A DNA stretch of 13,375 nucleotides, from the IMG/VR virus record IMGVR_UViG_2563366977_000006. The stretch is one strand, 5' to 3'. Made by a program: the position numbers and the translations under genes. This document shows, in pieces, positions 1,216-12,176 of the stretch. Within the stretch, counting starts at the first letter, position 1. Each line of letters begins with the position of its first letter. The notes under the pieces were generated by a model that was not told where the DNA came from, did not search any database, and saw only the letters and a list, made by a program, of their open reading frames with translations. The DNA is from a virus (taxonomy: Duplodnaviria > Heunggongvirae > Uroviricota > Caudoviricetes).

Positions 1216-1343
1216 CTGGTTGAGTATACAGTAGTAGACTTTGAGCGATTAAGAAAAGGCTGTGTCTAGGGTCGCTCCTGAAAACTCGTACACCTCTGCG
1301 GGCTGGCACAGCCACTTTTACAGAGGGTGCGAGGTAGCACAGA

Positions 1344-2488: not shown

Positions 2489-3337
2489 ATGAAATTTCCA
2501 AAAACGCCCGTACAGGGGCAGGGCTTCGTTCGGCCTGAAAACCAGAATCTGCAAAATTTTGGCGAAATTATCCCGGTTATTTCCGGCGTTATTGGCGGGC
2601 GTGAAACCAATATTGTTAGCGCCAGAGCGTTGCATAAGGCGCTCGGGGTAGGCCGTGATTTCACTACCTGGATTAAAGGACGTATTGATGAGTACGGATT
2701 TAAAAATGGCGTGGATTTTGAAATTGTAGAAAATTTGTACTTTGATTCCCCGAAACGGGGGAACCAAAGTGTAAATATTGAACAGTTTGATTCTGATTGG
2801 ACAACAAAGCGCGGCGGTGATCGCCGCAGTGAAGACTATTTGATCTCCACGAACATGGCGAAAGAACTGGCGATGGTCGAACGCACCGAACAAGGCCGCG
2901 CCGTTCGCCAGTATTTCATCAAATGCGAGGAGGAGCTACACAAGGTGGCGCCAGTGCGTTCCGCAGCGTTACGCCGGGAACTGAAAGCCCGTATCACCGT
3001 TGCCAGCTACTTTAAGCCGATGTGCGCTGCGCTGGAGGCGTACCGGGCTGAACTGGGTAAAAACACGTTCCAGCACCACTACACCACGGAAGCCAATATG
3101 CTGGCGCGTATCGTGCTGGGTGGCATGACTGCAAAACAGTGGGCACTGGCGAACGGCATCACAGGCGAACCACGCGACCACATGAGCGTGTTGCAGCTTG
3201 AGCACCTTTCTTACCTTGAGCAGAGCAATATCACGCTGATTGAGTTAGGCCAGGACTACCACCAGCGAAAAGCTGAATTAATTCGTCTTTCGCAGCGTTG
3301 GTTAGCCCGTCGCATGGAGGAAAACAGCCATGTGTAA
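2489..3337 (+). CDS. phage antirepressor-like protein (AntA/AntB-type N-terminal domain), 282 aa
   Basis: ATG at 2489 with AGGAG 5 nt upstream. N-terminal motif SARALHKALGVGRDFTTWIKGRIDEYGF resembles the antirepressor-type pattern (..R.LH..L.V...F..W...RI..Y.F). C-terminal half is helical and of unknown family. Assignment is by memory of the motif, not a search. Confidence 0.6.
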   Translation: MKFPKTPVQGQGFVRPENQNLQNFGEIIPVISGVIGGRETNIVSARALHKALGVGRDFTTWIKGRIDEYGFKNGVDFEIVENLYFDSPKRGNQSVNIEQFDSDWTTKRGGDRRSEDYLISTNMAKELAMVERTEQGRAVRQYFIKCEEELHKVAPVRSAALRRELKARITVASYFKPMCAALEAYRAELGKNTFQHHYTTEANMLARIVLGGMTAKQWALANGITGEPRDHMSVLQLEHLSYLEQSNITLIELGQDYHQRKAELIRLSQRWLARRMEENSHV

Positions 3338-4009
3338 CGCTCTGACCGTTACAAAAAGAGAAAGCGCCCCGTTGCCGGAGCGCCTTTGTGAACGAATAGC
3401 CTACTGCGCCATATTGCTTACTGTCTACGAGGCAGATTATAGCGTTGTGGTTGCACAGAGTGAAGGCGTTGATCACCGTTACCACAGCACACCAGAAATG
3501 CAGAATATTTTGCTGCAAAATGTCGTTGGTCACGCTGTCCGGAAAGCAAAAAATTTTGCTGGTGGCGCGACTGATGCGATTTTGTCAGGTCGCCAGGTGC
3601 TGATCAATCTGATGTCTGATTTCGTTCTGGATAAAACAAAGGCGACCGCAGAGGGCCACCAGTGGGAAAGCTACACACTTGAACACATCGCCAACAATGC
3701 CAGATTTGCGGTTGGTGGGCAATGTGATCAGTGTGCTGGCTTGCTGGTGGGCTATTCCTGCTCTTTAACATTGCCATGCCGCGATGTTTTCCAGGTATGC
3801 GACCCCATTTTTGTGCGCCTGTACTCTTTAAGGAATTTCTCAAGGATAAACGCACAGGGCGCGAATCTGTCTGACCCATGCTCGTACGCTATCTTTCTGC
3901 GCTGTCTTTTCCGTGCCGGTGATGGTGTATTGGTTGATTCTTTGTTGGTCATGGCGCTGCCCTGTAAAACGATGCACCGTAGTTCCTTACACCACGGCGC
4001 TGGTGATGG
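3330..4009 (+). CDS. possible translationally coupled gene with unresolved 3' end (possible decayed gene); frame stays open to 4886
   Basis: ATG at 3330 overlaps the upstream stop (cATGTGTAA) and has GGAGG 9 nt upstream, which argues for a real start. The first ~130 codons look protein-like, but later the translation becomes Cys/Ser/Arg-rich and the frame has no stop until 4886, running antisense through the repressor gene and its operators. The end coordinate is arbitrary. Confidence 0.25.
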
Positions 4010-4312
4010 TTACTCCTGTTCTTTGGCCTTGCGGCGCTGGAGTTCTTCACGTGCGACGGTGACGAGCTGCCCGATCTCCTCGACAGCTTTGACTCCGATT
4101 TTTTCCACCTGCGCCAGTGCATTGAGCGAAGAAACCAGGGGATTTTCTCCGCTTCCTTCTGCCTGGCGGCGGGCGATCTCACCACGCATGGCGGTTACTA
4201 TGAATCCGGCGTTGCTTTCGCCGTCCAGTTTTACGGATTCCATACCCTCCATAACATCGTGGGGAACCCTGATCGTTGTCATTTGCGATTTTGCATTTTT
4301 GTATACAGACAT
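4010..4312 (-). CDS. ribbon-helix-helix (Arc/CopG-like) DNA-binding regulator, 100 aa; candidate immunity/maintenance repressor
   Basis: Minus-strand ORF; start ATG at 4312 with GGTGA about 6 nt upstream. N-terminus TTIRVPHDVMEGMESVKLDGESNAGFIVTAMRGEIARRQ fits a beta-strand plus two-helix RHH pattern, followed by a helical/coiled C-terminus. It is divergent from the rightward operon. Confidence 0.7.
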   Translation of the reverse strand: MSVYKNAKSQMTTIRVPHDVMEGMESVKLDGESNAGFIVTAMRGEIARRQAEGSGENPLVSSLNALAQVEKIGVKAVEEIGQLVTVAREELQRRKAKEQE

Positions 4313-4332
4313 AGTTAATCACCAATTAGTTA

Positions 4333-4433
4333 TGTGTATATCACTATACACAAAAGTGAGATATAAAAACACTTGCAATGTATATCACCACAATATAATG
4401 TATATCTCACATTGTGATGGCTATGTATCTCAC
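4333..4433. promoter_or_regulatory. operator-like repeats in the divergent control region (4 copies of ATGTAT(A)TC(T)CAC plus palindromes)
   Basis: Read directly: TGTGTATAtcacTATACACA palindrome 4333-4352; ATGTATATCAC 4378-4388; ATGTATATCTCAC 4398-4410; TCACAtTGTGA palindrome 4406-4416; ATGTATCTCAC 4423-4433. All lie between the RHH gene start (4312) and the first rightward gene (4521). Confidence 0.55.
4373..4399 (+). promoter_or_regulatory. candidate sigma70 promoter for the rightward operon (-35 TTGCAA 4373-4378, 15-nt spacer, -10 TATAAT 4394-4399)
   Basis: Hexamers read by eye. The operator-like repeats overlap the spacer and the -10 element, as expected for a repressible promoter. The spacer is on the short side and there is no experimental support. 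Confidence 0.4.
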
Positions 4434-4520
4434 AATGATCGATTCATAAAAACGACGAAACCCGGCAGTGCGCTAACACTAACCGGGCTTCTAACCAAAC
4501 CGTTAAATGAGGTAACGATT

Positions 4521-4886
4521 ATGGCTGGGGCACAGCATACCCAAACTCACCCTAAATTTATATACACCTTCCTGGCGGTGCACCGTAATTGCATAGCTGA
4601 CGGTAAAAACACTGTTCATGTAGCCGCCGATACGCTGGTTGATGCCTGCGAGATGCTCAATGACATGGGCTATATCTCGGCAACATGGAAAGGGCGCGAA
4701 GAAAACACGCTGTTTATTCAGAAATGCGAAAACAATTTTATCTGGCGTTTTATCGCCCTGAGCACAGCACAACCGCGTGTAATTCACATCGAGGCCACCA
4801 GCGAACAGGAAGCACGCCAGCAATCTCCTGATGGCTGCGTGATGGTATTCGCCGCCCGTATTCGCCAGGAGGTGGAACATGTGTAA
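4521..4886 (+). CDS. hypothetical protein, 121 aa (first gene of rightward operon)
   Basis: ATG at 4521 with TGAGGT ending 8 nt upstream; in-frame part of the long ORF-track ORF 3330..4886. Stop overlaps the next start (ATGTGTAA). Confidence 0.65.
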   Translation: MAGAQHTQTHPKFIYTFLAVHRNCIADGKNTVHVAADTLVDACEMLNDMGYISATWKGREENTLFIQKCENNFIWRFIALSTAQPRVIHIEATSEQEARQQSPDGCVMVFAARIRQEVEHV

Positions 4887-5884: not shown

Positions 5885-6175
5885 ATGAAAAAGAAAAATT
5901 CTGGCTTTACTGCCAGCGGTCTCTCTCGGCCTGAAATCAGACACGGAGATATTTACCGCGACACCATACGTGGGGGACGAGCGGTTATTTGTCACGTTAC
6001 GCCAGGAAATATCACCTACCGCCGTGAGGCTTATGAATATGACTGCATAATGCCGCGCCGTCAGTTTGAGCGTGATTTTATTCTGGTGGAGAACAAACAA
6101 CAGGAAGCGACGAGACGTGCAGCCATGAATATTAAAAAAATCCGGGCAATGTTGGTTGCGGGAGGTAAGAAGTGA
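5885..6175 (+). CDS. hypothetical basic protein, 96 aa
   Basis: ATG 5885 with AGGA about 10 nt upstream. Its stop overlaps the GTG start of the primase gene (GTGA). Confidence 0.55.
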   Translation: MKKKNSGFTASGLSRPEIRHGDIYRDTIRGGRAVICHVTPGNITYRREAYEYDCIMPRRQFERDFILVENKQQEATRRAAMNIKKIRAMLVAGGKK

Positions 6176-7977
6176 AAAACGCACCGAGTCTAAAATATCA
6201 GCCGAAGGATAAATTCACTGAGGTAATCATTTTTGCCGGGACGGATGCTTACGCCCATGCTCAACACTGGATTGAAAGTGAAGGACGAAAACACGGCGAT
6301 AACGTGCCTCCTGTTTACCTGGGGCCAAAGCAACTGGCAGACCTGGCGAATATCCGCATTATTGATGAGAAACGCCGTTTTGCGCGTGTCTATATCGCGG
6401 GGGAGATAGAGCCAATCCAGATCAATACTATCGCTGAAAAGCTGGCGCTGGCTGGCGTACAGGAGGCGAAATTATACAAAGGTATCACCGACCAGGAACC
6501 GGAGAACTGGCGCGACTACCTGCAACGGATCCGCGAACAGGCTGAGCACGGGGAAGTTTCAGTGATGAAATTAGCTACAAAAAATAGTGGTCTACCCAAG
6601 CCTGCATTAAATCAGATGGGAGCCAGCCAGAGAGGAGAAGTGTTACTTGAACATTATGGAGGAGCACTGGCGATAAATGATGATTCTGATGTAGTTCACC
6701 ATTACAACGGAATTGTTTGGGAGCCTGTATCTGATAAGGAACTCCAGCGGTCTATGGCGAAGATTTTTATTGATGCCGAAATTAGTTATTCGCAAAACGC
6801 CATTAAATTTGCCGTAGAGACAATGAAATTGAGTCTACCTGTTATGGGGGGAGCGGACAGAAATCTTATTGGGTTCAGTAACGGTGTTTTTGATATCAGG
6901 ACAGGAAATTTTCGGGAACACAACAAAAATGACTGGTTGTTAAATGCCAGTGAATTACCGTTCAGCCCGCCAGAAGAGGGGGAAACGCTGGCAACACATG
7001 CGCCGAATTTCTGGAAGTGGTTGCGTCGTTCGGTGGCGGATAATGCTCGTAAAGCGGATCGCGTACTGGCGGCATTATTCATGGTACTGGCGAACCGGTA
7101 CGACTGGCAGTTATTCCTTGAGGTAACGGGGCCGGGCGGAAGCGGTAAAAGTGTGATGGCGGAGATTTGTACCATGCTGGCGGGTAAGGCCAATACAGTA
7201 TCGGCGAGCATGAAGGCGCTGGAAGACGCGAGGGAACGAGCGTTAGTGGTGGGATATTCTCTGATTATCATGCCTGACATGACCCGCTACGCAGGTGATG
7301 GTGCTGGGATTAAGGCCATTACAGGCGGTGACAAGGTGGCTATCGATCCGAAACACAAAGCGCCCTATTCCACGCGCGTTCCTGCGGTAGTGCTGGCAGT
7401 AAACAATAATGCCATGTCATTCAGCGACCGTAGTGGGGGGATCTCGCGTCGACGAGTGATATTTAATTTCTCTGAGGTTGTACCAGAGAACGAACGCGAT
7501 CCGATGCTGGCGAAAAAGATAGAAGGGGAACTGGCCGTAGTGATTCGCCATTTGCTTACACGATTTGCCGACCAGGACGAAGCGAAAAGACTACTTTATG
7601 AGCAGCAAAAATCAGAAGAAGCACTGTTAATAAAGCGTGAAGGTGATTCGCTGGTGGACTTCTGCGGTTATCTGATGTCGTTGGTTAAATGTGAGGGGAT
7701 GATAGTAGGTAATGCAGAAATAGTGCCATTTAGCCCGAGGCGATATCTGTATCATGCTTATTTGGCTTATATGTCTGCGCATGGTCTGGGAAAACCGGTA
7801 TCACTGACACGCTTTGGTACAGATATGCCAGGGGCAATGGCTGAGTACGGAAAGGAGTACAAGCGGGCTAAATGCACTAAAGGTCCAGATAAAGGGCGAA
7901 CGATCACAAATGTTCTGTTAGATAAAGATGCTGATGGATGGTTACCAGCAGCGGCAGGCATTAACGACAGAACATGA
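6172..7977 (+). CDS. P4 alpha-like / PICI pri-rep-like replication protein (primase C-terminal region plus SF3-type P-loop helicase), 601 aa
   Basis: GTG 6172 with GGAGG 6 nt upstream. Walker A motif VTGPGGSGKSV, followed by a hydrophobic-acidic stretch LVVGYSLIIMPDM (Walker B-like). Size and position immediately upstream of an iteron origin match satellite/phage-plasmid primase-helicases. Family call is by motif and context only. Confidence 0.8.
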   Translation: MKNAPSLKYQPKDKFTEVIIFAGTDAYAHAQHWIESEGRKHGDNVPPVYLGPKQLADLANIRIIDEKRRFARVYIAGEIEPIQINTIAEKLALAGVQEAKLYKGITDQEPENWRDYLQRIREQAEHGEVSVMKLATKNSGLPKPALNQMGASQRGEVLLEHYGGALAINDDSDVVHHYNGIVWEPVSDKELQRSMAKIFIDAEISYSQNAIKFAVETMKLSLPVMGGADRNLIGFSNGVFDIRTGNFREHNKNDWLLNASELPFSPPEEGETLATHAPNFWKWLRRSVADNARKADRVLAALFMVLANRYDWQLFLEVTGPGGSGKSVMAEICTMLAGKANTVSASMKALEDARERALVVGYSLIIMPDMTRYAGDGAGIKAITGGDKVAIDPKHKAPYSTRVPAVVLAVNNNAMSFSDRSGGISRRRVIFNFSEVVPENERDPMLAKKIEGELAVVIRHLLTRFADQDEAKRLLYEQQKSEEALLIKREGDSLVDFCGYLMSLVKCEGMIVGNAEIVPFSPRRYLYHAYLAYMSAHGLGKPVSLTRFGTDMPGAMAEYGKEYKRAKCTKGPDKGRTITNVLLDKDADGWLPAAAGINDRT

Positions 7978-8011
7978 TACGAAATTTATAAGTTGAAACT
8001 TAAAAGTAGAC

Positions 8012-8340
8012 GGTTGGTAGACAGATACACTTAACCCTCTACCAACCATCTACTAATTAATATTTTGAATTATATAGGTATTTTTAATGTGGTAGAGAGG
8101 TGGACATTTTATTTTATATTTCTAAACCACGGGGGTATCTAAAAATAGATAGTTATGGGTTCATTTTTAAAATTTTTCTTTTAACTATCTACACTGTCTA
8201 CCATTTAGTAAAAATCATTAATTATCAATGTATTAATACGGTAGAGAGTTGGTAGACAGTTTGCAGATTGTTTTTTGTTATGTGTGAACAACATTAAATA
8301 AATCAATCAATTATATCGATAGACAGTTGGTAGACAGTTG
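8012..8340. repeat. putative iteron-type origin of replication: about 7 copies of GGTAGA(C/G)AG in both orientations within an AT-rich region
   Basis: Read directly: GGTTGGTAGACAG 8012-8024; inverted CTCTACCAACC 8037-8047; GGTAGAGAGG 8091-8100; inverted CTGTCTACC 8194-8202; GGTAGAGAGTTGGTAGACAG 8240-8259; ATAGACAGTTGGTAGACAGTTG 8319-8340. Inverted repeat TAGATAGTT (8146-8154) / AACTATCTA (8182-8190) flanks a very AT-rich stretch that could act as an unwinding element. Confidence 0.6.
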
Positions 8341-8345
8341 TAACG

Positions 8346-8888
8346 ATGGGGCAAAGCATGACTAAGCTGACCATTAACAGAAAACCAAAAGGCATTTACG
8401 GCACGCCGCAGAAAACGACGCAGGCGGCGCAAGAGCAGGATAAAACCACATCGGCGCATAAAGTGATGCCCGGTAACCAGAAAGCGCAGCAGAAGCCCAT
8501 AGGGGCGACACCGTGGCGGCATATGACCAAGCGCCAGCGCAAAAACCTCAGGCGCATTAACCGCCTCACTGAGTTGTGGCCTGAATTATTCAGCCGGGAA
8601 GCACCGAAGCCGCTTAAGGTGGGGATATTCGACGACCTGATGCAGGATCTCGCCGTCAGGGGGCTGGCATTCGGGCCAGGGGCATTGCGTGCGACGCTGG
8701 CATCTTATGCGCAGTGTCCGCGCTATTACCGCGCCTTAATGGCTGGTGGGGTACGCTACGACCTGAAATGCCAGCCGTGCGGCGAGGTGACACCACAGGA
8801 ACAACAGGACGCAGAAACGCGGCTGGTTGCGCTGAATGAGAAACGCAAACGTCAGCGTCGGGCAGCAAAGGAGAAAACAGGCGCATGA
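8346..8888 (+). CDS. FinO/ProQ-domain RNA-binding protein with basic N-terminal extension, 180 aa
   Basis: The segment LTELWPELFSREAPKPLKVGIFDDLMQDLA...LRATLASYAQCPRYYRALMAGGVRYDLKCQPCGEVTPQEQQDAETRL parallels the ProQ N-terminal FinO domain (LAERFPHCF...RPLKIGIFQDL...LRSALRLYTSSWRYL...RVDLDGNPCGEL). A second in-frame ATG at 8358 is an alternative start. Confidence 0.75.
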   Translation: MGQSMTKLTINRKPKGIYGTPQKTTQAAQEQDKTTSAHKVMPGNQKAQQKPIGATPWRHMTKRQRKNLRRINRLTELWPELFSREAPKPLKVGIFDDLMQDLAVRGLAFGPGALRATLASYAQCPRYYRALMAGGVRYDLKCQPCGEVTPQEQQDAETRLVALNEKRKRQRRAAKEKTGA

Positions 8889-9172
8889 TTCACGACAGCA
8901 AAGCGGAAGCTCTGGAAGCGCGTGGTCTGTACCGGAGAGCGGCGGCGCGGTGGGCTGAGGTCATCATGCTGGCGAATGATGACAAGGCACGGGAACAGGC
9001 GGCAAAACGTCGCGCGGAATGTATCCACAAGGCAGCACGCCCACCAGCAAGGCAGGATAATTTCGGGGAGATGCGCAAAACCATCAGCCGGGCACATGCC
9101 GGGATGGGATTACATCAGCCCAATGGTGAGGCATTCAGGAAATACCAAAAAAAGAACAATTGTAGTCATTAA
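8885..9172 (+). CDS. PerC-like transcriptional regulator, 95 aa
   Basis: ATG 8885 overlaps the upstream stop (ATGA), with AAGGAG 11 nt upstream. N-terminus MIHDSKAEALEARGLYRRAAARWAEVIM resembles PerC-family proteins as I remember them; not verified by search. Confidence 0.55.
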   Translation: MIHDSKAEALEARGLYRRAAARWAEVIMLANDDKAREQAAKRRAECIHKAARPPARQDNFGEMRKTISRAHAGMGLHQPNGEAFRKYQKKNNCSH

Positions 9173-9306
9173 CAGAGGATGGGATTCTCTTGGTTTTTTG
9201 TTGATGCTTTCTGAGGAAATCTACTACGTTGCTGAGCAGATGAATATTCAATTGCATCTGGGTTCCTGATAAGATTAATCTGAATATTTTCATTTGGAAT
9301 AGGGAT

Positions 9307-10449
9307 ATGAATAAAACTTTAATTGCAACATTAGTCGGTATAGTAATGTTAACCGGATGTGGGCCAGAAGAGTTAACTCCAGAACAGAAACAGGAAGTAG
9401 CGGCTCTTAAAGCTGAACTGTCGCAAACGGAAGGTGAAATATCAGCAGCTAAGGAAGTTGACCAGCAGTTTTCTGGTGGGTTGATAAAAAATCTGACAAC
9501 AGCAAGACTGGAAATATTAGGAACTAATAAAGCGCTTTTGGAACAGCGTATTAATGCTATTGAATCAGGCGCCAAAATTGATGTTGTTGTATCTGGAGTA
9601 AAACCTGATCCTGAGCTTGCGGCTTCAATTAAAACTGAAATTGACAGCTTAGATGCAAAAATCAACGAAGCCAAAGCTGATGCTCGTCAGTATAGTGGTG
9701 GTCTGATAAAGGTACTAAAATTATCTACTGTTGCCACTGAAGAGCAGACCATGGCAATGTTGCAGCAAAAGTACCTCACAGCCAAGTATGGCCTCGCTGA
9801 AGTTAAGCTGGCATCAGTACAAGATAATGACGCAAAAAACAGTACTGAAACGGAAGTAACAGCCAAAAATTCCCAAGAGCAACTTCCTTTACTCCCGCCA
9901 GCGGATGGTCCGTTTGGCTTAGAAGCCGGTCTTACACAGAAAAACATCGAAGATATGATCGGTGCTAAGCTCAAGCCACTACCAGACAGTGTGAATCTGT
10001 ATACTTCTGATAAATTACCGAAGCAAAACGCAGATTTTGAAATGTATGGTTTGTTGATCTCCCCGAAAGCTGGTTTATGTCAAATACGGGCTTTAGGAAA
10101 AAATATTGATACTGATAGCTATGGATTGGCTCTTAAATCCAAGTTTGAAGAATTGAGTAATTCTTTAAGTTCTCTGTATGGAAAGGCTGATACTACAGAC
10201 TTTTTGCTGGCTGGTTCAATTTGGAAAGATCCTCAGGACTGGATGAGGGGGCTAAACAAAAAAGAACGCTTCTTATCTGCCACATGGAAGGGAACAAAAG
10301 AAATACCATTAAAAAACAATATTGATACTATCTCTATTGAGGCCAGAGCGAACAATTCCACTCAGGGATATGTCTATCTGCAGTACTCATTTACAAATGA
10401 CGAAATTTGTCAGGCAGAAATTGAAGGGGCGAAAAAAAGTTCCCTTTAA
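9307..10449 (+). CDS. lipoprotein (380 aa) with internal tandem repeat and C-terminal globular domain; function unknown
   Basis: Signal peptide with lipobox MNKTLIATLVGIVMLTGC (Cys18, Gly at +2). Two repeat units each carrying ...AK-x-D-x-Q-(F/Y)-SGGLIK-x-L... (SGGLIK at nt 9472-9489 and 9694-9711). AT-rich compared with the replication genes. Confidence 0.8.
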   Translation: MNKTLIATLVGIVMLTGCGPEELTPEQKQEVAALKAELSQTEGEISAAKEVDQQFSGGLIKNLTTARLEILGTNKALLEQRINAIESGAKIDVVVSGVKPDPELAASIKTEIDSLDAKINEAKADARQYSGGLIKVLKLSTVATEEQTMAMLQQKYLTAKYGLAEVKLASVQDNDAKNSTETEVTAKNSQEQLPLLPPADGPFGLEAGLTQKNIEDMIGAKLKPLPDSVNLYTSDKLPKQNADFEMYGLLISPKAGLCQIRALGKNIDTDSYGLALKSKFEELSNSLSSLYGKADTTDFLLAGSIWKDPQDWMRGLNKKERFLSATWKGTKEIPLKNNIDTISIEARANNSTQGYVYLQYSFTNDEICQAEIEGAKKSSL

Positions 10450-10461
10450 ACAATCCGTGCA

Positions 10462-10488
10462 AAGCCCCTTAGTAAGGGGCTTTTATAT
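10462..10488 (+). terminator. intrinsic terminator after the lipoprotein gene
   Basis: Perfect 9-bp stem AAGCCCCTT (10462-10470) / AAGGGGCTT (10474-10482) with 3-nt loop, followed by a T-run (TTTTAT), 13 nt after the stop codon. Confidence 0.7.
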
Positions 10489-10513
10489 ATTAATGTTCAA
10501 CGGGGGGGATTAG

Positions 10514-10837
10514 ATGAAAGATAATCTAGAAAAACTAATTGAAAATACTTTAAAAGATATTCTATTAGCTAATGCTGCTCTAACATTCATTTTTGCAATA
10601 CCAATGGCTATTATCAGTAGGCATGGGATGGGCATCACAATCTGGTTTATAACTGTGCTCATTGCACCTGCTCTGTGTGCAGTAGGTGCATGGCTTGTAT
10701 CTCGAACATTCGGCCATGCTGAGGAGTTCTTTCATCGTCGGTGGGCTAAGCGAATTTATGTTTTTTATACTCTTGCGGCTGCCGAGTTTTTGCTTGTGTA
10801 CTCAATCGCGCAAATAATGAAAAATCTGATGAAATAA
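10514..10837 (+). CDS. small integral membrane protein, 107 aa (2-3 predicted TM helices)
   Basis: ATG 10514 with G-rich SD upstream. Hydrophobic stretches AALTFIFAIPMAII, ITIWFITVLIAPALCAVGAWLV and YVFYTLAAAEFLLVYSIAQIM. AT-rich. Confidence 0.6.
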   Translation: MKDNLEKLIENTLKDILLANAALTFIFAIPMAIISRHGMGITIWFITVLIAPALCAVGAWLVSRTFGHAEEFFHRRWAKRIYVFYTLAAAEFLLVYSIAQIMKNLMK

Positions 10838-11583: not shown

Positions 11584-11651
11584 CCATACCCACAACGCAT
11601 TCCCTTTTCGCATGAAATTATTTTTTATCGTATATGCATGAGGTGAGCTAC

Positions 11652-12176
11652 ATGTTGATGAGTAAAGCCGAATACGCCAAATACAAAGGCGTAAGCCGCC
11701 AGACAGTTTACGACTGGATCGAGAAAGGCGAAGTGATCATGTCTGGCAAAAAAATTGATGTGGAGGCGACAGAGCAGCGGAACAGCCCACCGGCACAGGG
11801 GAAAGACACCGTTTCTGAAATGTGGCCAGAAAGAACGCTGGAAATGACGTGGGGCGAGTTCTGGAAAGCAGTTAAGGCCAGAGACGGTAAAATCCCTGCG
11901 CCAGTAACGGACGACGACATACAGCAACGTGTGCTGGATGCAGCCGGGGAATTCGGCTGGGAAGTGCAATTTCTTGATGATGGCGGGATTTGGATGGATG
12001 ACGGCGATGCTGAGTTTTATTTCGAGCAATATGATCTCAGGCAGAATGCCGAACTGGTGATTGGTACGCTGCGACGTGAGGTCTGTTATGTGGCTGATGC
12101 TTGTCCTGACGAGCTGGATAACTGGAGCGAAGCCGGACTAAACGCCCTGGCTGCATGGGAAAAAACAGGTCATTAA
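11652..12176 (+). CDS. HTH DNA-binding protein (Nu1/excisionase-like winged-helix N-terminus) with acidic C-terminal domain, about 175 aa
   Basis: ATG 11652 with GAGGTG 6 nt upstream; ORF-track start 11634 and ATG 11658 are alternatives. N-terminus MSKAEYAKYKGVSRQTVYDWIEKGEV has the pattern of small-terminase Nu1-type / excisionase-type HTH. The C-terminus is Asp/Glu-rich. Confidence 0.65.
   Translation: MLMSKAEYAKYKGVSRQTVYDWIEKGEVIMSGKKIDVEATEQRNSPPAQGKDTVSEMWPERTLEMTWGEFWKAVKARDGKIPAPVTDDDIQQRVLDAAGEFGWEVQFLDDGGIWMDDGDAEFYFEQYDLRQNAELVIGTLRREVCYVADACPDELDNWSEAGLNALAAWEKTGH

Follow-up and report, generated by a model that had tools for sequence, protein, structure and literature searches.

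A FinO/ProQ-family protein gene that overlaps a PerC-family gene in a PICI-type phage satellite of Escherichia coli

The DNA analyzed here (the window, 13,375 nt in all) belongs to a phage satellite of the PICI type that sits at tRNA-Thr in E. coli SCU-104, and it carries an intact gene for a FinO/ProQ-family protein whose stop codon overlaps the start codon of a gene for a PerC-family small protein. The FinO-type protein belongs to a known family, of which it is an uncharacterised member, and the element too is of a known kind; the analysis brings confirmation with context and no new mechanism. Our preferred reading, which we hold with moderate confidence, is that this protein acts as an RNA chaperone of the satellite's induced operon, coupled to the PerC-family protein and binding terminator-type transcripts. 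The two genes and their translation signals are as follows.

8348 to 8351, plus strand: Shine-Dalgarno sequence GGGG of the FinO gene, 6-7 nt 5' of the start
8358 to 8888, plus strand: FinO/ProQ-family RNA-binding protein gene, 176 aa (PF04352; RefSeq WP_024214656.1)
8868 to 8873, plus strand: AAGGAG before the PerC start
8885 to 8888, plus strand: ATGA stop/start overlap of the FinO and PerC genes, 4 nt
8885 to 9172, plus strand: PerC-family small protein gene, 95 aa (PF06069)

A start at 8346 had been assigned in the first-pass annotation, and this is replaced here by 8358. In an alignment of homologues, every N-terminus reads MT(K/T)LTINRKPKG, and the Shine-Dalgarno region aacgatggggcaaagcATG is kept behind unrelated upstream sequences; the in-frame ATG at 8346 falls within that region. 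Because the homologue N-termini, the conserved GGGG and the RefSeq annotation all agree, 8358 is almost certainly the true start. The decay of an antA pseudogene and an icd fragment nearby in the island might suggest that the FinO gene is likewise a non-functional remnant, or else a mis-annotation. We judge this to be extremely improbable, since the reading frame is intact over its full length, many relatives share 92-98% identity with it, none of the key residues varies and few amino-acid changes fall within the FinO domain. Judging from these sequences, the clade is under protein-level constraint.

The presence of a FinO/ProQ domain, first recognized from the letters alone, was confirmed by profile search and also by sequence comparison and fold. 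The Pfam family PF04352 (ProQ/FINO) matches with E=1.3e-22 and 80.3 bits, against a cut-off of 27, over residues 70-172 of the 180-aa reading from 8346 and profile positions 7-108 of 109. The nearest solved relatives by sequence are ProQ, FinO, NMB1681 and RocC. An AlphaFold (AF2) model built on 17 clade members is confident at residues 58-175, with pLDDT >90 for most of 60-170. A Foldseek search with this model gave 26 significant PDB matches (E <= 0.001), all of them FinO-domain structures at probability 1.00; they include the entries 3mw6, 1dvo and 7rgt/7rgu and the proteins NMB1681, FinO, RocC and Lpp1663. Superposition of the model on FinO gave an rmsd of 1.8 A over 98 columns. The protein can be divided into the following parts.

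Residues 1 to 57: disordered basic N-terminus
Residues 58 to 70: basic helix KRQRKNLRRINRL
Residues ~58 to 175: FinO domain

Work on RocC showed that residues G52, R75, Y87 and R97, which correspond to G37, R58, Y70 and R80 of ProQ, form the pocket for the 3'-terminal nucleotide of a terminator, and that the R97M substitution lowers RNA binding more than 200-fold (PMC9674577). The satellite protein aligns G89, R111, Y123 and R133 with these same ProQ positions, and the four residues are invariant or at least 90% conserved among the 17 clade members. By this alignment, the residues of the 3'-end-binding pocket are kept in the satellite protein. It would be expected to bind terminator-type hairpins with 3'-OH U-tails, for which the domain has a documented specificity. 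The long basic N-terminal extension, which had been singled out as a distinctive feature, is indeed basic (17 K/R vs 2 D/E in residues 1-70, pI 11.9), and disorder is predicted for residues 1-49. It is not special, however: the motif LT[IL]xRKxxG at the N-terminus is common to the satellite protein and the FinO of plasmid pSLT, so that the basic N-terminus is an ancestral FinO-type feature and no novelty.

Comparison with the better-known FinO-domain proteins helps to place the satellite protein. Plasmid FinO of F-like plasmids (1dvo) is similar in size (187 aa, compared to 176 for the satellite protein) and has the same architecture, consisting of the LT[IL]xRKxxG motif, a basic linker and the FinO domain, without a C-terminal Tudor domain. 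As in the satellite, the finO gene of F lies distally in a long operon (tra) of a mobile element. Nevertheless, the two proteins are only 27% identical over the domain, and the satellite protein scores 59.4 bits with the NCBIfam FinO model NF010317, below the cut-off of 136. The genetic setting also differs: the satellite gene lies on a chromosomal phage satellite instead of a conjugative plasmid, without tra gene context, and is probably coupled to a PerC-type gene. No antisense pair of the FinP/traJ kind was found for it. Among solved structures, the best sequence match is to ProQ (5nb9, E=1.3e-10), whose residues R58, R69, Y70, R80 and D82 are conserved in the satellite protein. Unlike ProQ, the satellite protein lacks the linker and Tudor C-terminal domain, ending within ~30 residues of the FinO domain; it scores 53.4 bits with the ProQ equivalog NF003434 (cut-off 127), and its gene sits on a mobile element. 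Taken together, the sub-cut-off scores, the low identity to FinO and the missing Tudor domain rule out an orthologue of either plasmid FinO or ProQ.

Another FinO-domain protein from a mobile element is FopA (YafB) of pCol1B9 (IncI type), which is also described as having a basic N-terminal region and no ProQ C-terminus. FopA acts on a replication-control antisense RNA (PMC7491321), whereas the satellite has no Inc-like RNA. Plasmid homologues of the satellite protein are at most ~37% identical, except for two records at 60-80%, one of which is a fragmented 65% match in a 17.9-kb E. coli plasmid record. Phage records gave only seven distant matches among 50,697. This FinO clade belongs to satellites and related islands.

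The second gene of the pair had been described as encoding a PerC-like regulator, and this family assignment is borne out. Its product matches PF06069 with E=3.8e-32 and 110.8 bits (vs 22.6) over profile positions 1-89 of 90, and it contains the invariant PerC motif KAExLExxGLYRRAAxRW. It is thus a full-length member of the family that includes PerC, PchABC, PchE and EcCIMP1_025, being 64% identical to a protein named for the PchABC family, 89% identical to a truncated PchE and 49% identical to EcCIMP1_025. The pchABC-type homologues in O157 genomes differ in that they match without any FinO match beside them, and EcCIMP1_025 likewise has no FinO neighbour. PerC/Pch homologues activate the LEE (LEE1), while the EcCIMP1 homologue represses it (PMC11773190), and PerC alleles are carried by E. 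coli PICIs (PMC6092414). The AF2 model of the PerC protein is a helical hairpin in which a DNA-binding fold is not recognisable, and a fold search against the PDB gave no significant match; the predicted structure adds no mechanistic constraint. Close coupling of the two genes, another element of the first-pass annotation, is supported by the 4-nt ATGA overlap, an arrangement seen in 55 of 86 related loci, and translational coupling is probable on these sequence features. A 10-nt direct repeat and a 20-nt inverted repeat also join the 5' end of the FinO gene with the 3' end of the PerC gene, both of a size expected by chance.

The nature of the element is evident from its surroundings. The window sequence is identical to part of the SCU-104 chromosome, and the annotation of that chromosome reveals an island of ~16 kb at tRNA-Thr, between the proA and pao genes. 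The main features of the island, apart from the FinO and PerC genes, are as follows.

1 to 1215: tyrosine integrase gene
1259 to 1327: int-alpA RNA motif (Rfam, 44.7 bits vs a gathering score of 35.8)
2214 to 2411: alpA
In the island, with alpA and the primase-helicase gene: DUF4222 gene
6172 to 7977, plus strand: P4/D5-type primase-helicase (pri-rep) gene, 5' of the origin (Pfam D5_N, DUF5906, Pox_D5)
7978 to 8345, no strand: satellite replication origin, with iterons in both orientations and an AT-rich core

The primase-helicase also matches NCBIfam TIGR01613, below the cut-off for that model. The antA pseudogene and the icd-like (Icd) fragment are decayed genes of the island. Structural, lysis and psu-delta-sid genes were found neither in the RefSeq annotation of the island nor in Pfam and PHROG scans of selected ORFs. 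The genomic hallmarks of PICIs, and the layout of those from Gram-negative hosts, have been described (PMC6092414); the island has an int gene beside a tRNA att site, alpA, pri-rep, a size within 10-20 kb, no structural or lysis genes, and an origin in which two iteron sets flank an AT-rich core. A P4-like satellite is not supported, since neither that annotation nor those scans of selected ORFs show the psu-delta-sid genes, and the likeness to P4 is confined to the integrase, alpA and the alpha-like primase. The same attachment site is used by the experimentally validated satellite EcCIMP1 (PMC11773190). Indeed, the island shares int, alpA, pri-rep, tRNA integration, the arrangement of the origin, the size of ~16 kb and the lack of structural genes with the Gram-negative and capsid-forming PICIs EcCICFT073, EcCIEDL933/OI-51 and EcCIMP1. 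Helper-phage induction, replication and packaging have been demonstrated only for relatives such as EcCICFT073 and EcCIMP1, and would apply to the present element by analogy. Two of these relatives differ in the feature of interest: OI-51 is described with SSB and PchE and without FinO, and EcCIMP1 is also without FinO. EcCIMP1 is functional in this state, so a satellite can complete its basic cycle without a FinO gene. As to a role as a defence system, no PADLOC match was found.

The setting of the FinO gene was compared across 86 loci with a homologue, with reference proteins mapped onto all of them: 9 loci come from E. coli genomes, 2 from other species of Escherichia and 74 from usable IMG/VR contigs, and the window completes the set. 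A scan of genome contigs gave only 2 loci. Satellites account for 84 of the 86 loci, and their gene order is int, alpA, ..., icd, ..., DUF4222, primase, ori, (small ORF, SSB), FinO, small gene, terminator and cargo or packaging genes. The primase is of either the P4 type or the DUF927 type, and SSB with the small ORF is present in many of the satellites. In 77 of the 86 loci there is overlap between the FinO stop codon and the gene that follows; the identity of the following gene varies as listed here.

PerC, 4-nt overlap: 55 of 86 loci
PerC, 2-nt gap: 2 of 86 loci
82-aa protein (phrog_1957) unrelated to PerC, 10-nt overlap: 16 of 86 loci, in capsid-forming satellites
138-aa Ant-like protein followed by a PerC remnant, 20-nt overlap: 6 of 86 loci
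Nothing downstream, with PerC upstream of FinO (reversed order): 4 of 86 loci
None: 3 of 86 loci, namely two stand-alone genes in other island types and one IS-disrupted locus

The idea that the 82-aa protein (hyp82) is a divergent PerC was rejected, as it has no Pfam support. The FinO gene is thus the more constant partner; overlap with whatever gene comes next is the rule, and PerC is common and not obligatory. EcCIMP1 provides the reverse case of a PerC protein (49% identical to that of the window) in a satellite with no FinO gene.

Several of these observations could be taken to mean that the two genes form a host-directed accessory module, in which a FinO-like and a PerC-like cargo protein reprogramme host expression (virulence genes, H-NS-silenced islands) and the FinO-type protein serves as a ProQ-like general binder or competitor. 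The module stands at the border between core and cargo genes, and the regulatory effects of PerC/Pch homologues on the LEE, along with the resemblance to the PchABC-family-named protein, would fit such a role. Furthermore, homologous FinO genes stand alone in two non-satellite islands (L004 and L005), and 1849 of the 5426 complete E. coli genomes examined carry DNA with homology to the module. We nevertheless consider a host-directed module unlikely: the FinO gene has a fixed place in the core operon, also in capsid-forming satellites in which PerC is replaced, and this is better explained by a role in the satellite life cycle.

The left spacer, between the primase-helicase and FinO genes, is the replication origin. 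The window as a whole has ten matches to TTGGTAGACAG with up to 2 mismatches, where 2.6 would be expected, and seven of them, in both orientations, fall within 8014-8337.

8014-8024, 8035-8045, 8089-8099, 8194-8204, 8249-8259, 8316-8326 and 8327-8337: iterons of the TTGGTAGACAG type

These iterons flank DNA of 27-32% GC directly 3' of the P4/D5-type primase-helicase gene, a layout that is the same as in published PICI origins (PMC6092414). The first-pass annotation had given weight to the position of the FinO gene beside the origin. The two are indeed neighbours in this window, but the adjacency is incidental, because in many relatives SSB, with or without a small ORF, intervenes, and because the replicon type (P4-type or DUF927 primase) differs while FinO stays constant.

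The same region bears on a proposal with good precedent elsewhere, namely that the FinO-like protein controls copy number or replication by assisting an antisense or origin-derived RNA that acts on the primase gene or on origin priming. The precedents are FopA with Inc-repZ and FinO with RepX (PMC9977716, PMC7491321, PMC8136791), and the FinO gene always comes directly after the replication module (primase, ori, SSB). Within the origin, the 17-bp iteron palindrome at 8005-8054 would give a minus-strand hairpin followed by UUUU (z = -5.6), and there is a weak minus-strand promoter-like site at 8200-8172 together with a terminator-like site at 7950-7929. However, the FinO protein remains 73-98% identical among relatives that have exchanged their origins and primase types, no terminator-like element is common to the different origin types, promoter-like sites in the region are no more numerous than chance would give, and palindromic iterons are expected at any such origin. 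Replication control is thus, in our estimate, improbable. The suggestion that a partner RNA is encoded in 7978-8345 is set aside for similar reasons, in that this spacer is the origin and is exchanged independently of FinO among relatives.

The boundaries of the FinO-PerC module can be read from homology. Megablast matches to relatives with other replicons start at query positions 643-659, equivalent to window positions 8342-8358, and end at window position 9068, 9146 or 9201; upstream homology breaks within ~16 nt of the FinO start. The gene therefore has no private upstream or promoter region and must be transcribed from upstream. On the evidence of these boundaries, transcription must enter the FinO gene through the origin in this satellite and through SSB in others.

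On the downstream side, the relatives have a canonical intrinsic terminator 10-30 nt 3' of the PerC gene or the 82-aa gene, often with a second terminator next to it, and with dG values of -12 to -22 kcal/mol. The GC-rich stems differ by lineage (GGCCGGGA/TCCCGGCC, GGCCTGGA/TCCAGGTC and GCCGGA/TCCGGC), and those of different lineages align out of register. One form found among the relatives is GGCCGGGA-TTTT-TCCCGGCC followed by a T-run, and a canonical example reads GGCCGGGAUUUUUCCCGGCC plus a U-tail. The homologous sequence in the window, CAGAGGATGGGATTCTCTTGGTTTTTT, has decayed, and the features on this side of the module are as follows.

9174 to 9199, plus strand: decayed intrinsic terminator remnant; its hairpin at 9174-9190 is weak (dG -4.7 kcal/mol) and is followed by a T6 run at 9194-9199
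9307 to 10449, plus strand: lipoprotein-like cargo gene, 380 aa, no family match above cut-off
10461 to 10483, plus strand: first strong plus-strand intrinsic terminator 3' of the FinO-PerC module, 10-bp stem

Five distinct sequence variants downstream of the module carry the 380-aa cargo gene, and each of them has the weak hairpin. The terminators of the relatives suggest that the FinO-PerC module would normally close an alpA-dependent early/replication operon. Because the terminator has decayed in the present lineage, transcription probably reads through from FinO-PerC into the lipoprotein-like cargo gene.

The right spacer (9173-9306) had been proposed, along with the left one, as a place where a partner RNA might be encoded. 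A search for stem-loops with U-tails found one in this spacer, and it is the module's own sense-strand terminator, degenerate here; the proposal does not hold, as the spacer contains nothing else of this kind and folds no better than shuffled sequence beyond the decayed terminator (z = -0.75). An antisense RNA within the FinO gene was considered and rejected: on the minus strand the hairpins (8410-8391 and 8566-8550) are weak, antisense folds in the gene are no better than those of shuffles (z = +0.8), and synonymous diversity, taken over 56 distinct sequences, stays at 0.08-0.31 throughout and has no trough. Minus-strand terminator-like sites number 4 near the FinO gene, vs 1.7 +/- 1.5 by shuffle, and 21 in the whole window, vs 12.5 +/- 3.6, which is only a modest excess. 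A SymR-like match at 4454-4526 was also discarded as a candidate partner, being below threshold and missing from the intact relative L091.

Three Rfam families, int-alpA, C4 and isrK, were followed among these satellites, and none of them co-varies with the FinO gene. The int-alpA motif is present in the window and in loci L003, L006, L011 and L091; C4 and isrK are present in L002, L007, L008 and L012; and the reversed-order loci that were scanned (L086 and L089) have none of the three. The presence of C4 and isrK upstream of icd in four FinO-carrying loci, and the antA and icd-like remnants in the window, would be consistent with an immunity or antirepressor circuit in which the FinO-type protein assists a C4/IsrK-type antisense RNA, or another RNA, that controls icd/ant-like genes. 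Against this, searches as permissive as E<=5 detected neither C4 nor isrK in the window or in the intact relatives L006, L011 and L091, and both are present in the FinO-less EcCIMP1. In phage P1, moreover, C4-type RNAs are processed rather than terminated, and such RNAs are not the preferred ligand of a FinO-domain protein. We consider a circuit of this kind to be highly unlikely. In summary, no RNA ligand for the FinO-type protein was found in the flanking spacers, in the FinO gene itself or among the Rfam families, and the only conserved RNA structure that belongs to the module is the operon's own terminator, canonical in the relatives and decayed here. By homology with other members of the family, the RNA-based control layer envisaged in the first-pass annotation is plausible.

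The model that we offer for the preferred reading, an RNA chaperone of the induced operon, is the following. The FinO gene would be the penultimate cistron of a long rightward operon running from alpA through the replication genes, translationally coupled to the PerC-family regulator gene. Once a helper has induced a PICI, the operon is driven by AlpA (PMC6092414, PMC11773190). By analogy, a helper phage would induce the operon of the present satellite, and the FinO-type protein would be made only once alpA has been switched on. The conserved 3'-end pocket may then grip terminator-type hairpins at their base, along with the 3'-OH U-tails, in one or a few transcripts of the satellite, the helper or the host, and the disordered basic N-terminus might promote RNA-RNA pairing or shield the RNA against attack by 3' exonucleases. 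For its part, the coupled PerC-type protein would work at the level of transcription, and coupling would allow the two proteins to be produced in a fixed ratio. A bolder version of this model sees the protein as a near-core FinO-type RNA chaperone of PICIs and capsid-forming PICIs, made in fixed ratio with a small regulator and targeting helper or satellite transcripts. We put this forward only tentatively, as a rather doubtful extension; if true, it would amount to an RNA-level weapon or timer in the conflict between satellite and helper, so far undescribed for any satellite.

The genes themselves have been noticed before. Both are already named by PGAP, the FinO-PerC pair was listed in ROD34 of EAEC 042 in 2010 (PMC2808357), and a 2026 paper mentions ProQ-like and PerC genes from Enterobacter satellites (PMC13612085). 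A review of the FinO/ProQ family treats phage-encoded members only in general terms. The PICI papers examined discuss PerC alleles and mostly leave the FinO gene unmentioned, with no function for it found there; FinO is absent from both the capsid-forming-PICI preprint and the SatelliteFinder paper, and our literature search found no functional study of a satellite FinO gene.

FinO-domain proteins have been known from plasmids (FinO, FopA) and from chromosomes (ProQ, RocC), and the present clade comes from satellites and islands. About one in three complete E. coli genomes has DNA homologous to the FinO-PerC module. The FinO gene occupies a fixed place between the replication module and the packaging or cargo module of satellites, a kind of element that spreads virulence and defence genes. 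Its RNA ligand would tell whether satellites exert post-transcriptional control over themselves, their helper or their host, and might explain why virulence regulators of the PerC/Pch type travel with a FinO gene.

The gene that follows FinO differs among the relatives of this island. In the capsid-forming satellites (L009, 9543-9791, and the related loci L049-L061), FinO is followed not by PerC but by an 82-aa protein with a 10-nt overlap, which belongs to phrog_1957 and for which no Pfam match was found; this gene is succeeded by a terminator and then by the capsid gene. In loci of the L003 type, a frameshifted PerC is preceded by an inserted protein of 138 aa, part of which is Ant-like. The island of E. 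coli AHB12 (L091) is near-identical to that of the window, apart from an IS3-family element (9586-10799) that has taken the place of FinO-PerC together with the beginning of the lipoprotein gene; it is thus a deletion mutant made by nature.

The regulatory region of the island in the window (2489-4886) is degraded: in RefSeq, antA is labeled a pseudogene and only a fragment of the Icd-like gene is annotated. The intact relative L091 has an Icd-like gene of 121 aa. A 518-aa ORF at 3330-4886 is probably spurious, because it overlaps ylcI-type genes on the minus strand (3752-4312). A SymR-like match on the minus strand (4454-4526) scored 35.9 bits, under the gathering score of 61, and is probably due to chance, since it is missing from L091. 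Upstream of the Icd-like gene, Rfam detected genes for the antisense RNAs isrK and C4 in tandem (62-81 bits) in several satellites (L002, L007, L008, L012 and L093), among them the functional satellite EcCIMP1, which has PerC without FinO. The order of isrK/C4 and icd in these satellites resembles the c4-icd-ant arrangement of phage P1.

Two further elements of the window are these:

1259-1327, plus strand: int-alpA RNA motif (RF02996), 44.7 bits in Rfam against a gathering score of 35.8
8005-8054: 17-bp iteron palindrome, directly 3' of the primase stop codon

The int-alpA motif, which separates the integrase gene from the ORF after it, consists of a GC-rich outer stem, then a U-rich tail, then a Shine-Dalgarno-like AGGG. 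Rfam searches found it in the window, L003, L006, L011 and L091, and not in the remaining FinO-carrying lineages or in EcCIMP1. The palindrome at the origin lies in a region of strong folding (z = -5.6), and on the minus strand UUUU comes after it; it might serve both as a terminator of leftward transcription and as a Rep-binding site.

Toward the right side of the island lie the following:

10461-10483, plus strand: strong terminator, 3' of the cargo gene (9307-10449)
11634-12176, plus strand: helix-turn-helix protein of 180 aa, N-terminus matching phrog_57

The match of this N-terminus to phrog_57, a phage small-terminase family (E=1.8e-6), makes the protein a candidate for an Rpp-like or TerS-like product that would redirect helper packaging. 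In L001, beyond the limits of the window, the island has a direct repeat of 22 nt, TTGGGGGTACTTTTGGGGGTAT, on either side (4049-4070 and 19905-19926), which may have a connection with the attachment sites.

No family match was obtained for the cargo gene of the window, whose product is lipoprotein-like and 380 aa long. The terminator that in relatives closes the FinO-PerC module (9174-9199 in the window) is degraded in exactly those lineages that carry this gene downstream, and this coincidence suggests that loss of the terminator captured the cargo gene into the operon.
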